Made by a program: the position numbers and the translations under genes
The notes under the pieces: generated by a model
What the model was told of the DNA's origin: nothing
The model's database searches: none
Seen by the model: only the letters and a program-made list of their open reading frames with translations
Source of the DNA: an uncultured Acidobacteriaceae bacterium
GTDB lineage: Bacteria > Acidobacteriota > Terriglobia > Terriglobales > Acidobacteriaceae
Direction: 5' to 3'
Assembly: GCA_963718445.1 (NCBI GenBank)
Contig: CAVQZI010000001.1
Coordinates: 1,706,522 to 1,770,521 of the forward strand
Length of the DNA: 64,000 nt
Shown: positions 7,557 through 48,359 of the stretch, in pieces
Numbering within the stretch: position 1 is the first letter of the stretch
Layout of the letters: each line of letters opens with the position of its first letter

Positions 7557-7598
7557 AAGACCGCCGTTCGCTAGTCGCTCTTCGCTTTTCGCTAACTG

Positions 7599-8945
7599 CT
7601 AGTTGCTAATTGCTGCCTTTTTTTGCCACTCGGTCGCCTGCTCGTAAGCATTCGCGAGACGCAAGCACATCGAATCCCCGCCCGGCCGGCTGGAGATCTG
7701 CATTCCAACCGGCAGCCCGCCGCTCGTGAATCCGCAAGGCACCGAAATGGTCGGCCAGAACAGCACGCTAAAGGGTGCCGTGTTGCGCAAAAGATACTTC
7801 ACTTCGAATGGCCGCACATCTGGGACGGCCAGCTCCTCTACACCCGCTAGTTTCGGCGCAGGTACCGGGACCGTGGGCGTGATGATCAAATCCATTTCCT
7901 CGAAGATGCGTGCAGCGTTCGTGCGAAACGCCACCAACCGGCGCTGCTCGCGAATGTAGTTCGTCGCGCTGATTCCGGCACAGTTCTTCAGCCGGAACAG
8001 CGTGCGCGGATCGTATAGCTCGGGAGTATTGGCGATCATGGCCTCATGGAATTCATAGATTTCCGCATCGAACATGGTCCGGAATCCTTCGGCTGGCACA
8101 TCGACCTCGTGCACCTGGGAAACCATCCTGGTCAGCGTTTTCAACGCCCCCTCCAGGCAGGTGCTCACCTCGGGGTCGAGGTCGTCGAAGAACTTCTTCC
8201 GGGCAATCCCAATCTTTAATGGCAAGACGGGGTCCTCAAGCGATTGCACGAACCCGGAACCGCCGCTAAACACATCCATCAAGATCGCGGTATCGCGAAC
8301 CGTGCGCGTCATCGGCCCCACCGTATCAAACGATGTGGACAGCGGAACGATGCCTTCGCAACTCAGTAGGCCGGCACTGGGCCGATGCCCCACAAGTCCG
8401 CACAACGCGGAGGGACATCGGATTGACCCGGAGGTGTCAGACCCCATCGCTACCACACACAGACCCGCCGCCACCGCCGCCCCCGAGCCCGATGAAGATC
8501 CGCCCGTGATTCTTTTCACGTTCCAGGGATTCCTCGTCGGCCCGAATGCGCTCACCACACCGCTCATCCCGAAGGCGAACTCGTGCATATTCAACTTCCC
8601 CAGAATGACAGCACCCGCGTCTTTTAATCGACGGACAATTTCTGCATCTCGCGACGGCACACGGTTCCGATACTGATTGCTGGCCGCCGTCGTTCGCACC
8701 CCGGCCGTATCGAAGAGGTCTTTCAACCCTATGGGAACGCCGTGCAGTGGCCCGCGACATCTTCCCGCGTTTATCTCGGCCTCTGCACGCCTCGCCTGCT
8801 CGAGAGCAAGATCGGCCGTAACAGTAATGAAAGCATTGACCACCGGATTGAGACGCTCGATTCCAGCCAGGCACGCGCGCGTGAGTTCAACCGGAGAAAG
8901 GCGGCGAGTGCGAATCTGTTCCGCCGCTTCCGTAAGTGTCAGCAT
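7599..8945 (-). CDS. Amidase-signature family amidohydrolase (GatA-like)
   Basis: GGSSSGSGAAVAAG amidase signature and a KDLFD motif. Confidence 0.85.
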   Translation of the reverse strand: MLTLTEAAEQIRTRRLSPVELTRACLAGIERLNPVVNAFITVTADLALEQARRAEAEINAGRCRGPLHGVPIGLKDLFDTAGVRTTAASNQYRNRVPSRDAEIVRRLKDAGAVILGKLNMHEFAFGMSGVVSAFGPTRNPWNVKRITGGSSSGSGAAVAAGLCVVAMGSDTSGSIRCPSALCGLVGHRPSAGLLSCEGIVPLSTSFDTVGPMTRTVRDTAILMDVFSGGSGFVQSLEDPVLPLKIGIARKKFFDDLDPEVSTCLEGALKTLTRMVSQVHEVDVPAEGFRTMFDAEIYEFHEAMIANTPELYDPRTLFRLKNCAGISATNYIREQRRLVAFRTNAARIFEEMDLIITPTVPVPAPKLAGVEELAVPDVRPFEVKYLLRNTAPFSVLFWPTISVPCGFTSGGLPVGMQISSRPGGDSMCLRLANAYEQATEWQKKAAISN

Positions 8946-9675: not shown

Positions 9676-11526
9676 ATGGCCACACCCGGCGACTTTGCGC
9701 ACACCATCAAGGAGCAGGCTGATATCGTCCGCATCGTGGGCGAGTACGTCAAGCTGCGCAAAAGCGGAGCACAGAATTTTCAGGGCTTGTGTCCATTTCA
9801 TCAGGAGAAGACGGCGTCGTTCTCGGTCCATGCGACGCGTCAGTTCTTTCACTGTTTCGGCTGCGGAGCTTCGGGCGATGTCTTTGCGTTCGTACAGAAG
9901 CTCGAGAACATTACCTTCCCTGAGGCTGTACGACTCGTAGCAGAGAAGCTCAACATTGCGCTGCCCAAGATGACTTACTCCTCGCCCGAGGAGGCCCGTG
10001 CCGGCAAACTTCGTGGCGGGCTCATCGATGTGCACGAGCGGGCCTGCGCTTTTTTCCAGGATCAACTGCGCCGCCCGGAGGCCGCACACGCCCGAGAGTA
10101 TCTTGCCTCCCGTGGACTCACGCCAGAGCACATTGCCGAGTTTCGCATCGGCTATGCGCCAGATTCGGGCTTTCTGCTTCGCGACGCGCTCCGCAAGCAG
10201 TTCGACGACGAAGAGCTTCTGCGCGAGTCGGGGCTGTTTAGTTGGAAGGCCGCTGATCCCTCCCCCCTGGCCCCTAACCCCCAGCCCCTGCCCTCCGCCT
10301 ACTCCCGCTTCCGCAATCGCGTGATGTTCCCGATCTGCAATGAGTCAGGCAAAGTAATCGCCTTCACCGGACGCACGCTCTCTGCCGACGAGAAAGCTGG
10401 GCCCAAGTATTTGAACTCGCCGGAGACGCCGATCTACTCCAAGTCGCGCGTCCTCTTCAACCTGGGCAAAGCCAAAGACGCCATTCGCAAGCTCGATTAC
10501 TCCATCCTGGTGGAGGGTCAGATGGATTGCATCTCCGTGTACAACGCCGGTTTTCACAATGTGATCGCCAGCTCCGGAACTGCGTTCACTGAGCCGCAGG
10601 CGCGACTGCTGGCGCGATTCAACAAGAACATCGTCGTCAATTTCGATCCTGACACCGCTGGGGCTGCGGCGGCCGAGCGTTCCCTCGCGCTGTTGGTGAG
10701 CGAAGACTTCCAGATCAAGATCCTGACTCTTGAGAACGGCTTTGACCCCGATCTTTACATCCGGCGCAGGGGACGGGATGCGTACGAGCTGGCGCTCCAG
10801 CAATCGCAAAAATACTTTGATTATCTAATCGAACGTTCGCGCTCCCAGTTCTCTGTGCGCACGCCCGAGGGCAAGGTGAAGGCAGTGAACTACCTGCTGC
10901 CCCATCTTCAGCGAGTCCCCAGCCGCATAGTTCGCGACGAGTGGGCCAACGAGATTTCTCACCGGCTGGGCATTGACTCGGCGGTGTTGCGCCAGGAGCT
11001 GCGACATGCCGCAGGATCGCGATCCACGTCACGCGTAAACGCGACGAGCGCTGGCGGCCTGACCGATGCTGAGCGGGTCTTGATTCGTGCCTTGTCGAGC
11101 GAGGCCCCGGCGCATGCAGCGGCTAGCAGTCGCGAAGGTCTGGACAGCGAGTTCGAGCCGGCGCGGCAGGCCCATTTCGCGCTCACCCGCGAGCGGCTGC
11201 ACGAAGGCTCCAGTGCCGAGACGCTCCTCGACGCTATCTTACTGGCGCACGAGCAGGGGCTGAACCCCATGTCCCTTCCCTTGGACGACGCGGGTAGAAG
11301 TCTCTTGGCGGCCGTACTGATGGACGAACACGAGGAACTCACGCCGGAGTTGCTGGACAGCGCGCTTCGCTCCCTCCGTAGGCGTGTTTTGCGGCGTCAA
11401 CTCGACAACCTGCAATATCAGTTGAAGGATGCCGAGCGGCGCCAAGACCCGGCTTCCGCAGCAAAGCTTTTGCAGGAGCGGGTCCGATTACGCAAGATGA
11501 TGAGCACCATCGGAGAGAGCGCCTGA
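9676..11526 (+). CDS. dnaG: DNA primase
   Basis: Zinc ribbon CPFHQEKTASFSV...FHCFGCG, RFRNRVMFPI, KYLNSPET, and a TOPRIM EGQMDCIS motif. Confidence 0.97.
   Translation: MATPGDFAHTIKEQADIVRIVGEYVKLRKSGAQNFQGLCPFHQEKTASFSVHATRQFFHCFGCGASGDVFAFVQKLENITFPEAVRLVAEKLNIALPKMTYSSPEEARAGKLRGGLIDVHERACAFFQDQLRRPEAAHAREYLASRGLTPEHIAEFRIGYAPDSGFLLRDALRKQFDDEELLRESGLFSWKAADPSPLAPNPQPLPSAYSRFRNRVMFPICNESGKVIAFTGRTLSADEKAGPKYLNSPETPIYSKSRVLFNLGKAKDAIRKLDYSILVEGQMDCISVYNAGFHNVIASSGTAFTEPQARLLARFNKNIVVNFDPDTAGAAAAERSLALLVSEDFQIKILTLENGFDPDLYIRRRGRDAYELALQQSQKYFDYLIERSRSQFSVRTPEGKVKAVNYLLPHLQRVPSRIVRDEWANEISHRLGIDSAVLRQELRHAAGSRSTSRVNATSAGGLTDAERVLIRALSSEAPAHAAASSREGLDSEFEPARQAHFALTRERLHEGSSAETLLDAILLAHEQGLNPMSLPLDDAGRSLLAAVLMDEHEELTPELLDSALRSLRRRVLRRQLDNLQYQLKDAERRQDPASAAKLLQERVRLRKMMSTIGESA
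10257..10298 (+). repeat. Heptamer-periodic C-rich tract (CCCCTGG CCCCTAA CCCCCAG CCCCTGC CCTCCGC) inside dnaG
   Basis: 7-nt periodicity read directly. Encodes DPSPLAPNPQPLPS. Confidence 0.6.
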
Positions 11527-15288: not shown

Positions 15289-15324
15289 GATCGGCCTCCT
15301 GATGAGATGCCAGGCCACTGGCCT

Positions 15325-15394
15325 CTCGCCCCTAATCTCTCGCCCCTAATCTCTCGCCCCTAATGTCTCGCCCCTAATGTCTCGCCCCTAATCC
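15325..15394. repeat. Tandem repeat, 5 x 14 bp (CTCGCCCCTAATNT)
   Basis: Five head-to-tail units read directly, differing only at the 13th and 14th positions of the unit (ct, ct, gt, gt, cc). Confidence 0.95.
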
Positions 15395-34784: not shown

Positions 34785-34804
34785 CAACCGACAACTGACA
34801 ACCG
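34785..34804 (-). repeat. GACAACY heptamer-word element (atpG-atpD spacer)
   Basis: CAACCGACAACTGACAACCG, the same words as the right arms of the mnmG insertions. Confidence 0.55.
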
Positions 34805-46138: not shown

Positions 46139-46192
46139 GCTGAGTGTGACAGTTGGGTGCTGAGCGCTGAGTGCTTGAATGCTTATTGCTAG
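46139..46192 (+). repeat. Heptamer-periodic word tract (GCTGAGY / TGCTNNT) upstream of mnmG
   Basis: GCTGAGTGTGACAGTTGGGTGCTGAGCGCTGAGTGCTTGAATGCTTATTGCTAG. Confidence 0.5.
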
Positions 46193-48359
46193 AATCAAAT
46201 TAGCCGGGGTGTTTGGCTTGCAGTCACAATTTACAGAAACTTACGACGTTGTCGTGGTCGGTGCCGGCCATGCTGGTTGCGAGGCCGCAATGGCGGCCGC
46301 GCGCATGGGCCTGAGAACTGCACTTTACACCCTCAACGTCGATCTCATCGCGCAGATGTCGTGCAACCCGGCTGTCGGCGGAATTGCCAAAGGCCATCTT
46401 GTCCGCGAAGTCGACGCTCTCGGTGGCATCATGGGCGAAGTGACGGACGCCGTCGGTATTCAGTTTCGTCTGCTGAACACCTCGCGCGGCCCGGCGGTTT
46501 GGTCCCCGCGAGCGCAATGCGACAAGCAGCAGTATCGCCGGAAGATGCGCGAGGTGCTGGAATCCGAGCCCAACCTGCACATCAAGCAGGCGGAAGTGGC
46601 CGAACTAGTTGTCAGTTGTCAGTTGCCAGCTGTCAGTGGAATCGATGAGCAGCCACAACTGACAACCGACAACCGACAACTGATAACTGGCATTCGCCTT
46701 CGCGACGGCCGCACCGTTGGCGCGCAGGCAGTCATCATCACGACCGGGACATTCCTCAATGGCCTGATCCACTGCGGCGAACAGCAGTATCCCGCGGGCC
46801 GCAGTGGTGAACCCGCGGCCGTGCTTCTCGGCGAAGCATTAAAGAAGCTCGGCCTGCGCGGTTGCCGGCTGAAGACGGGCACGCCGCCGCGTCTTGATGG
46901 CCGCAGCATCGATTGGTCGAAGTTCACGGTGCAGCCGGGCGATGAGGATCCCACGCCCTTCAGCTTCCGCACCAGGCGCGTTGCGCATCACGACAAGCAG
47001 GTGCCGTGCTACATCGCGTTCACCACGCCAGAGACGCACCGCATCATCCGCGAGAACGTGCACCGCTCGCCCATGTACAGCGGGCAAATCCAGTCCATTG
47101 GGCCGCGCTACTGCCCTTCCATCGAGGACAAGATCGTCAAGTTCCCCGACAAGGAAGTGCATCAGCTCTTTCTTGAGCCTGAGGGGCTGAACACACACGA
47201 GATCTACGTCAATGGCATGAGCACCTCGCTGCCCATCGAGGTGCAGCTCGCGATCATCAAGTCGATTCCCGGCCTGGAGAACGCGGAGATGCTGCGCCCA
47301 GGCTACGCCATTGAGTACGACTCCATCGATCCCACCGAACTGCAACGCACGCTGGAGACGAAGAAGATCGAGCGACTTTATTTGGCCGGGCAGATCAACG
47401 GCACCAGCGGCTACGAAGAGGCAGCGTGTCAGGGGCTGATGGCCGGCATCAACGCCGCGCTGAAGATCAAGGGCCAGCCACCGCTCATCCTCGACCGTAC
47501 CGAGGCATATACCGCGATCCTGATCGACGACCTCATCAGCAAGGGAACGAACGAGCCCTATCGCATGTTCACCTCGCGCGCAGAGTTCCGCCTGCATCTG
47601 CGCATCGACAACGCCGACCGGCGCCTGACGCCGCACGGCCGCCGCGTAGGCTTGATCAGCGATGCCGCCTGGGCGGATTATCTCGCCAAGCAGGAGCGCA
47701 TGAAGGCCTTGCGCGAATTGCTGGAACGCACGCGGGTGAATGAGGCAGTTGTCGGTTGTCAGTTGCCAGTTGTCGGAGCGGATCCCAATGCAGTCAACGA
47801 TTCCAAGCACCTGTTGGAGCTATTAAGAGACGCCAAAGCCGCGGGGGTTACGCTGGCGCAGTTTCTGAAGCGTCCCGAAGTGCGAGTAGAGCAGCTTGCG
47901 CCAGTACTTGCGAGTCTGATGCCTGGTTTTTTTGTGAGAGAGGCAGACGTCAGTTGTCAGCCTTCAGCTCTCAGCCAGAGCTTACCGGTGACGCAGCCGA
48001 CAACTGACAACGGACAACTGACAACTCCGCGCTTGAGCGCGGCCGTCCGCAACGAACTGAAGTCCGTCGAGACTGAGATCAAGTACTCCGGCTACCTCGA
48101 GCAGCAGGCCAAGGCCATCGAGCGGTTGAAGAAATCCGAGCAGCGGATGATCCCCGATTGGTTCGACTACGGCAGGGTATCGGGCCTCTCGCGTGAGATG
48201 AATGAAAAGCTCACCCGCGTTCGCCCGCAAACACTGGGACAGGCCAGCCGCATTCCGGGCGTGACGCCCGCCGCGGTTTCCCTCATCAACGTGTACATCG
48301 AAATCCAGGCGCGGCAAAAGGGCGCGCCTGCACATGCCGGTGCTCACCGCGTCTCTTAG
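46179..48359 (+). CDS. mnmG: tRNA uridine-5-carboxymethylaminomethyl synthesis enzyme MnmG (GidA), about 95 aa longer than E. coli MnmG
   Basis: [76 protein letters not shown], and [11 protein letters not shown]. Start could also be 46209 or 46218. Confidence 0.97.
46607..46688 (+). repeat. Imperfect hairpin of AGTTGTC heptamer words, in-frame inside mnmG (insertion 1)
   Basis: Left arm 46607-46639 and right arm 46653-46688 are approximate reverse complements. Confidence 0.8.
47746..47776 (+). repeat. GTTGTC-word tract inside mnmG (insertion 2, single arm)
   Basis: CAGTTGTCGGTTGTCAGTTGCCAGTTGTCGG encodes [10 protein letters not shown]. Confidence 0.7.
47949..48026 (+). repeat. Heptamer-word hairpin inside mnmG (insertion 3), 78 nt
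   Basis: GTCAGTTGTCAGCCTTCAGCTCTCAGCC ... GCCGACAACTGACAACGGACAACTGACAACT. Confidence 0.75.

Follow-up and report, generated by a model that had tools for sequence, protein, structure and literature searches.

Intergenic direct repeats of the heptamer TAACTGA have been described in Beggiatoaceae, Cyanobacteria, and Bacteroidetes (MacGregor 2015, PMC4679880), and heptamer repeats are also found in Nostoc (bioRxiv 10.1101/2022.06.06.494920). The TAACTGA system has one dominant word and one inverted set among 170; its forward orientation stops in every frame (LITDN-stop), its reverse orientation is open (LSVISYQ), and translation within genes was considered only in theory (PMC4679880). A second related system, the Rickettsia palindromic elements, is presented in the relevant passages of PMC10969869 (after Ogata et al. 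2000) as elements of ~100-150 bp that follow a family consensus, encode a conserved peptide, lie in frame in unrelated housekeeping genes at fold-compatible sites, and are regarded as selfish. Here we analyze heptamer arrays at three sites of the mnmG (gidA) gene in a 64,000-nucleotide stretch of DNA, below called the window (C1:1706522-1770521, where C1 is contig CAVQZI010000001.1 of assembly GCA_963718445.1), from an uncultured Acidobacteriaceae bacterium. The genome comprises 4.99 Mb in 2 contigs with 58% GC, and its nearest kin are Terriglobales/Acidobacteriaceae from peat and soil.

The arrays resemble the heptamer repeats of MacGregor and of Nostoc in the 7-nt unit, the short tandem sets, the mostly intergenic placement near start codons, and a mechanism of spread that is not known. 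Like the TAACTGA repeats, they stop in every frame in the forward orientation (LTTDN-stop here) and are open in the reverse one (QLSVVSC here). They differ in the word, which is CAACTGA or CAACCGA in this genome (CAACTGA being one base off), in the number of words (~140, many in inverted pairs), and in the phylum, Acidobacteriota, for which our literature search found no description of heptamer arrays. They differ also in that the mnmG copies lie inside a conserved enzyme, appear to be read through, and have an in-frame stop edited. A tandem unit of 7 nt, a mostly intergenic distribution over the genome, and one stop-closed orientation are thus all found here as in the heptamer-repeat class, with the two mnmG copies as intragenic exceptions. 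With the Rickettsia palindromic elements, as portrayed in the passages cited above, the arrays share palindrome-forming DNA in frame in a housekeeping gene at fold-compatible loops; in contrast to that portrayal, they consist of 7-nt words in ~29-31-nt arms that stand singly or hundreds of nucleotides apart, have no consensus beyond the word, change the word between species at a fixed site, and in one copy overwrite the host gene. It is the exact word that separates them from the TAACTGA repeats, and size and consensus that separate them from the Rickettsia elements.

We interpret the mnmG insertions, with a probability of roughly 0.7, as translated members of a dispersed population of heptamer arrays, tolerated in floppy loops, made by in-place overwriting and arm copying, kept uniform by copying at the DNA level, and neutral for the chemistry of MnmG. 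The relevant features are as follows (positions in the window).

46179-48359, + strand: mnmG (gidA), an open reading frame of 726 amino acids that carries all three heptamer sites.
46607-46689, + strand: insertion 1, a local hairpin of the same word family, (AGTTGTC)x4.4, a 17-nt spacer, and (ACAACTG)x5; arm duplex -35.5 kcal/mol.
47746-47776, + strand: insertion 2, a lone left-type array (CAGTTGT/CGGTTGT)x4.1-4.4, in frame, with the sequence CAGTTGTCGGTTGTCAGTTGCCAGTTGTCGG.
47777-47948, + strand: ordinary mnmG coding stretch between the complementary arrays; by alignment, its 3' part encodes conserved helices and its 5' part is lineage-variable.
47949-47979, + strand: left part of insertion 3, a degenerate array GTCAGTT GTCAGCC TTCAGCT CTCAGCC (TCAGNNN family), the orphaned left arm of a local hairpin.
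47980-47998, + strand: loop remnant of insertion 3 (GAGCTTACCGGTGACGCAGCC region), by alignment to L081, L083, L084, and L085.
47999-48026, + strand: right part of insertion 3, a right-type array (GACAACT)x4 that reads TTDNGQLTT, the reverse complement of insertion 2.
48012-48014, + strand: a GGA codon, edited from T to G, in the sole array slot that would put the consensus TGA in frame; read directly from the sequence.

Arrays of period 7 were called by Tandem Repeats Finder, with borders fuzzy to ~3 nt and a register ambiguous by multiples of 7; insertion 2 was called at 47746-47774 (4.1 copies) and the right array of insertion 3 at 47999-48026 (4.0 copies). A 15-mer of the word, with at most 2 mismatches, has 16 matches in the window against 0.18 expected, a number reached by none of 100 shuffles. 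The coordinates, sequences, and translations given for both insertions in the original prediction are exact. For comparison we used 160 relatives, comprising 80 orthologs from genomes at the species level (L001-L080) and 80 metagenome sequences.

In a maximum-likelihood tree of the conserved core, the window sequence, L002, L007, and the pair L001 and L006 form one clade with 98% support in the Shimodaira-Hasegawa-like approximate likelihood ratio test (SH-aLRT). All five members bear an array at the insertion 2 site, and the sister clade (L003, L011, L004, and L005) has none, which points to a single origin of insertion 2 in the ancestor of the five-species clade. The insertion is old, since it is common to the whole clade and the synonymous divergence there is near saturation. 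From the RTRVN anchor to TLAQ the array-bearing L001 has 30 amino acids, compared with 27 in the array-less L004 and L005, although the array itself takes 10-11 codons; with a net gain of 3, at least 7 native codons must therefore have been displaced. One metagenome sequence, L081, is 11 codons shorter at this place, lacks the array, and retains only CCAGTGGCCACTG, which is probably a secondary loss.

Insertion 2 is almost frozen at its synonymous sites. We compared ten sequences sharing the A-type word at insertion 2 (the alternative B type, the word of L006, is described below), with conserved flanking codons as the reference. Four-fold sites are identical in 209 of 228 comparisons (92%) within insertion 2 and in 1534 of 2971 (52%, near saturation) in the flanks. 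The valine codons GTT, GTC, GTT, and GTC are invariant in all ten, a result matched by a random draw of four flank columns in 5 of 100,000 cases (P = 5e-5), and the codons of the insertion are minor ones in this genome (GTT 17%, GGT 13%, TGT 23%, TTG 15%). The encoded peptide AVVGCQL is also conserved in the ten relatives. Because four-fold sites are frozen and minor codons are kept, it is the nucleotide word that is maintained, not the peptide alone; either the DNA or RNA word would be under selection, or a homogenizing copying process would hold insertion 2 to the family consensus.

Insertion 3 has a different structure. The whole segment 47949-48026 (78 nt, 26 codons) was originally described as one hairpin-type unit, but by itself it folds only moderately (-27.0 kcal/mol, z = -3.4), through a 10-bp stem between GTCAGTTGTC and the distal end of the GACAACT array. 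In the nearest relatives, L081, L083, and L084, this place is occupied by a good local hairpin with left arm GTCAGTTCTCAGCCGTCGGCCATCAGCC, a loop, and right arm CTGACAGCTGAAAGCCGACAGCTGA, followed by a separate GACAAC array. In alignment to them, the right arm CTGACAGCTGAAAGCCGACAGCTGA is deleted from the window. Because the relatives keep the right arm that the window has lost, insertion 3 is better described as a composite of an orphaned TCAGNNN left arm, a loop remnant, and an independent right-type array than as the single hairpin proposed earlier. Directly 3' of the GACAACT array lies a palindrome CCGCGC-TTGA-GCGCGG (48027-48042) encoding PRLSAA; array-bearing relatives share the palindrome and the RLSA(A/E) motif, array-less ones have neither, and both may therefore belong to the inserted material.

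The mnmG arrays belong to a large genomic population. The genome contains 466 period-7 arrays with ~140 canonical words, among which the CAGTTGT/GACAACT family and its CGGTTGT/GACAACC variant account for ~4-7% (~30 arrays). Genes were called with a crude program trained on the genome itself, which found 3944 genes (82% coding) and makes the genic and intergenic counts approximate. By this measure 284 arrays lie entirely between genes, 89 extend over a gene end, and 93 are genic; with ~18% of the genome non-coding, this is a ~14-fold depletion in genes. Many of the "genic" arrays fall in the first few percent of the called gene and are probably 5' leaders. The intergenic CAGTTGT/GACAACT copies are plain arrays of 3-5 units that abut stop codons or lie just upstream of a ribosome-binding site and ATG. 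Array density per kb is 0.44 in co-directional, 0.31 in convergent, and 0.17 in divergent spacers, and in co-directional spacers the position is bimodal, either immediately behind the stop or immediately in front of the start. Neighboring arrays within 120 nt are inverted copies of each other in 39 of 88 pairs, compared with 4% of random pairs; in the inverted pairs that were read, one and the same orientation always leads on the strand as written, e.g. (AGTTGTC)n ... (GACAACT)n. Inverted pairs at distances of 121-500 nt (3 of 21) do not clearly exceed the 4% background. The median array length is 30 nt in the genome and 31 nt in the mnmG orthologs, where 57 of 83 arrays measure 29-32 nt.

The relation between insertion 2 and the right array, which lies 224 nt downstream in insertion 3, goes beyond reverse complementarity. 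In the minimum-free-energy fold of 47730-48045 they pair with each other and close 47777-47948 in a duplex of 26-29 bp (-41.1 kcal/mol), compared with -21.8 for the right array with the local left part of insertion 3 (here and below in kcal/mol). In L006, insertion 2 reads CAGTGGC and the right array is of GCCACTG type; its own duplex has -54.4, whereas pairing of L006 insertion 2 with the right arrays of the window, L002, and L007 reaches only -19 to -27. In its sister L001 the state is intermediate: insertion 2 has the old word, and the right array is mixed. The same combination of CAGTGGC and a GCCACTG-type right array is found in L110, L122, and L132; in wider windows the own duplexes of these three and of L006 reach -58 to -62. 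In total, the word family agrees in 13 of the 15 sequences typable at both sites (A/A 8, B/B 5, A/B 1, B/A 1). We relied on this word-type classification, since duplexes in wide windows (60 nt for insertion 2, 48 nt for the right array) separate own from cross pairs weakly (means -31.2 and -28.2), because the GC-rich background pairs anyway. These comparisons suggest that the two arrays are likely coupled, and candidates for the source of coupling are selection for pairing, arm-to-arm copying, or conversion from the genome's pool of arrays. The idea that mnmG received three independent copies is consequently not supported: the arrays belong to one word family with ~4-7% of the genome's arrays, two of them are reverse complements whose family tends to co-change in relatives, and insertion 2 is clade-inherited and displaced at least 7 codons.

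Such coupling brings in the main rival explanation, a long-range helix with a function of its own, in single-stranded DNA or in the mRNA of mnmG, formed by insertion 2 and the right array around ~220 nt and selected for its pairing. Proposed roles include slowing ribosomes at a domain boundary, shielding the message, or binding a heptamer-reading protein. The use of the long-range pairing and not the local one in the minimum-free-energy fold agrees with this explanation, but the right arm of insertion 1, at a distance of 1 kb, is just as good a partner for insertion 2 (-41.9), and any two arrays of one family pair. Selection on a helix would account for the frozen synonymous sites of insertion 2, yet those of the other strand of the supposed helix, the right array, are unconserved (0.60). 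Similarly, the matched new words in both arrays of L006, L110, L122, and L132, the poor cross-pairing in L006, and the family agreement in 13 of 15 sequences are what a selected helix would produce, but L001, L085, L088, and L090 break the rule, L081 keeps the right array without insertion 2, and the switch in L006 runs alongside a change in word frequency over its entire genome, where the B word is enriched (90:118, compared with 34:102 here and 10:176 in L007). The order of a left-type followed by a right-type array is that of all local hairpins of the genome, and a PF05635 gene bracketed by arrays 409 nt apart shows that long brackets exist, although the 3 of 21 inverted pairs at 121-500 nt do not make them a clear genomic trend over the 4% background. 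Finally, every ribosome would melt a helix inside an open reading frame. We consider a functional helix unlikely.

The reading frame provides the evidence that the arrays are translated. As 7 and 3 are coprime, (CAGTTGT)n encodes the cyclic peptide QLSVVSC in all frames and never meets a stop; (GACAACT)n, in contrast to this stop-free orientation, contains TGA once per 21 nt in every frame. In the right array of insertion 3 the in-frame TGA slot reads GGA, and the two out-of-frame slots are still TGA. The same is seen in ortholog arrays with a stop in the consensus, where the stop is kept in 0 of 21 in-frame slots and in 40 of 53 out-of-frame slots; the replacements at the in-frame slots are CGA (8), TGG (3), TGC (3), and others. 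None of the 160 relatives examined has a broken mnmG. If the segment were excised or bypassed, neither a kept frame nor avoidance of stops would be needed, and ribosomes are therefore argued to read straight through, so that both arrays are most likely translated into protein as floppy loops. They do not behave as phase-variable contingency repeats, as their length is nearly fixed, the units are imperfect, and the gene is intact throughout the 160 relatives.

On the protein side, the 726-aa product matches the MnmG structures in PDB (E = 4e-188) and contains the Pfam domains GIDA (residues 23-433), GIDA_C_1st (495-643), and SAM_GIDA_C (648-703). When the product is aligned to solved MnmG structures with HMMER, the match is lost at residues 523-526 and regained at 625-629. 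In an AlphaFold2 model built with 28 close orthologs, which is of low confidence, insertion 2 falls between helices 495-517 and 536-555, and residues 589-615 of insertion 3 form a coil with a predicted local distance difference test score (pLDDT) below 50. Both sites are thus inter-helix loops of the first C-terminal helical domain. Their length varies from almost nothing to more than 100 residues in the 160 orthologs with the frame always open, L004 being almost without insertion 3, and the loop at insertion 1 varies likewise in the 80 species-level orthologs. The orthologous loops are filled by unrelated low-complexity peptides, encoded by heptamer hairpins of other words (AGTTTCG, AGTGGAT, CCAACGA) and by units resembling repetitive extragenic palindromes (REP) that read CHPERSEAKPNAVEGP. 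In L001, L006, L007, and L011 a miniature inverted-repeat transposable element (MITE) of ~150 bp with terminal repeats GTCATCCTGAGCG...CGCTCAGGATGAC is nested in the heptamer-bounded loop equivalent to 47949-48026 and is read through in frame as VILSEATEGSAVEGPLL... / GVILSEATEGSGVEGPLLCDDDR...SAQDD (L001:1486-3798, L006:1471-3822, also L007 and L011).

Comparison of the orthologs firmly supports tolerance of inserts in this region, because loop length is hypervariable and unrelated repeat peptides are held with an open frame; the suggestion of a strongly tolerant linker in the original prediction is borne out in this respect. Conservation of the extra residues at the protein level across the phylum was looked for and did not appear, the residues being confined to a small clade. 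Insert lengths in multiples of three are uninformative, because any survivor in an intact gene is necessarily in frame and because the fuzzy borders leave array lengths imprecise. The MnmG of E. coli has 629 amino acids, giving a surplus of 97 here, to which the three elements contribute ~27 + 10 + 26 = 63 residues. The GIDA_C_1st profile (96 positions) covers 149 residues of the product, i.e. +53, of which insertions 2 and 3 supply 36. For the statement that the three elements explain most of about 95 extra residues, the figures are thus 63 of 97 over the whole protein and, for insertions 2 and 3 in the C-terminal domain, 36 of 53.

We propose the following scenario. The basic unit would be an array of ~31 nt with ~4.4 repeats, of the left type CAGTTGT or the right type GACAACT, often occurring as inverted pairs. 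In the clade ancestor a left-type array would have overwritten at least 7 native codons and become insertion 2. At insertion 3 a hairpin of another word family would have decayed by loss of its right arm, and the right-type array that follows it would mirror insertion 2. Copying could have taken place between inverted arrays, by template switching or gene conversion, or by conversion with the genomic pool of the same word as the template; a copying process would account for the freeze of synonymous sites, the constant length of 31 nt, and words that change in coordination. The enrichment of the B word in the genome of L006, where both arrays switched, also favors this scenario. The ribosome would read the arrays as floppy loops built of QLSVVSC-type and TTDNxQL-type heptads, the sole edit needed being the removal of one in-frame TGA per right-type array. 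The arrays are most likely passengers without a role in MnmG chemistry. What the data show directly is that the arrays are present, belong to the family, lie in loops with an open frame, are inherited within the clade, are complementary, and are conserved at synonymous sites; translation into protein, the mode of copying, and neutrality for the enzyme are inferred.

Several observations weigh against this scenario. The right array of insertion 3 shows weak conservation at synonymous sites (identity 0.60, compared with 0.52 in the flanks), so homogenization is not uniform. The CGG variant of unit 2 in insertion 2 is common to all ten sequences, which looks like vertical inheritance under constraint and not like repeated re-copying from a pool. 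The agreement between the two arrays has exceptions (L001 is partial, L090 mismatched, and L085 and L088 partnerless) and comes from few independent switches; the B group may stem from very few. The argument for translation is one of frame and stop codons, and the structural model behind the loop assignment is poor, with a mean pLDDT of 61.6.

A stronger form of copying can be imagined, in which a dedicated, sequence-aware process writes and proof-reads ~31-nt inverted-pair arrays, overwriting codons inside open reading frames and coupling insertion 2 and the right array as one bracket. Its footprints would be frozen synonymous sites, quantized length, constant orientation order, and coordinated word switches. 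We regard such a process as improbable, on a par with the functional helix.

Still less probable is the model implicit in the original prediction, in which a small mobile element, similar to the Rickettsia palindromic elements or to MITEs, inserted recently and independently at these sites and frame-compatible insertions survived in the tolerant linker. The word family is indeed dispersed (~30 arrays), and like REP, bacterial interspersed mosaic elements (BIME), and MITEs, the arrays are small, hairpin-forming, and enriched after genes in co-directional spacers. However, insertion 2 is old, clade-wide, and found where synonymous divergence is near saturation, and native codons were replaced instead of a full-length element being added. 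The true MITEs with GTCATCCTGAGCG...CGCTCAGGATGAC termini, inserted and translated in the same loop of L001, L006, L007, and L011, speak for this model; unlike them, the heptamer arrays show at their borders no terminal inverted repeats, evident target duplications, or fixed ends. One-armed arrays are common, and at orthologous sites the word changes between species while place and length are kept. Genes for Y1 transposases are present in the genome (five Y1_Tnp matches), but no link between them and the heptamer arrays is shown. Recent transposition therefore fits the data poorly.

An adaptive role of the inserts at the protein level, e.g. as surface loops altering the contact of MnmG with MnmE or tRNA, with the nucleotide repeat as a by-product, likewise fits poorly and is the least probable explanation: AVVGCQL is conserved in ten relatives and the inserts sit in the C-terminal helical region, which contacts MnmE in MnmG-MnmE structures, but protein-level selection leaves the conserved four-fold sites and minor codons unexplained, the loops are hypervariable with unrelated fillings in sister lineages, L081 lacks insertion 2 and L004 almost lacks insertion 3, and insertion 3 is predicted to be disordered.

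Heptamer hairpins also occupy the insertion 1 site in most Terriglobales orthologs among L001-L080. They are two-armed there, with arms almost always of ~31 nt, and the word differs by species (CAGTTCT, CGGCTTC, AGTACCC, AAGTTTC, CAGCGAT, and others), although the second arm mostly matches the first. A search of Rfam gave nothing at insertions 2 and 3 and only sub-threshold microRNA look-alikes on the insertion 1 hairpin. A location of mnmG at the replication origin was considered and rejected, as the GC-skew extremes lie at 0.34 and 1.30 Mb of C1 and not near 1.75 Mb.

Other arrays of the window include an intergenic-type hairpin at 1342-1423, with (AGTGGAT)x3.3, a 37-nt spacer, and (ATCCACT)x3.1 (AGTGGAT also forms the insertion 3 hairpin of L005). 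A CAACCGA array (x2.9) of the CAGTTGT/GACAACT family lies at 34785-34804, a TTCGCTA/GCTAATT array at 7567-7614, and a CCCCTAG array of period 7 at 10264-10293. The strongest tandem repeat of the window is the 14-nt unit CTCTCGCCCCTAAT at 15323-15393 (x5.1, 96% identity, score 128).

Elsewhere in the genome, the region C1:978239-983364 holds five CAGTTGT/GACAACT arrays of alternating orientation within 5 kb, between short co-directional genes, and looks like a local hotspot or spreading center of the family. Translated arrays in other conserved genes occur in a class II ribonucleotide reductase (C2:1348306-1348334, read as ADNREPATDNR, beside a REP-like GEAEGSAFA), in the C-terminal tail of aspartokinase-homoserine dehydrogenase (C1:817724-817861, SRELRAAGSELRAAS and LQLATDNWQLT, with TGA changed to TGG), and in a nickel-insertion protein of the LarC type (C2:575650-575681). 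Three tandem paralogs of a tetratricopeptide repeat (TPR) membrane protein at C1:2495995-2499708 also belong to these genes, each with the same CTCTTCG/CGAATAG hairpin. The PF05635 gene mentioned above (23S rRNA intervening-sequence protein family, 105 bits, C1:2070339-2070829) lies between inverted arrays, of AGCACTT/TCAGCCC type on the left and GCTGAAT/GCTGACT on the right, and a PF05635 fragment at C1:1207952-1208089 is followed by a GCGAAAA-type array. Unlike such bracketed genes, the mnmG arrays carry no PF05635 cargo and enclose the host's own conserved coding sequence.

Rickettsia has repeat DNA that is read through in essential genes, and intergenic heptamer repeats have been described as well; the combination is barely described in print. 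Four features are new here: insertion 3 is composite, insertion 2 overwrote host codons, the mirror arrays are likely coupled, and the synonymous sites of insertion 2 are frozen. In one gene with three sites, the data go beyond "tolerated junk": codons were replaced, rare synonymous codons are kept, and the mirror copy tends to co-change. The mnmG gene of Terriglobales is thus a compact natural test bed for distinguishing a copying mechanism from selection on nucleic-acid structure. For the soil bacteria that carry them, heptamer arrays lengthen annotated proteins and create low-complexity peptides in the proteome.

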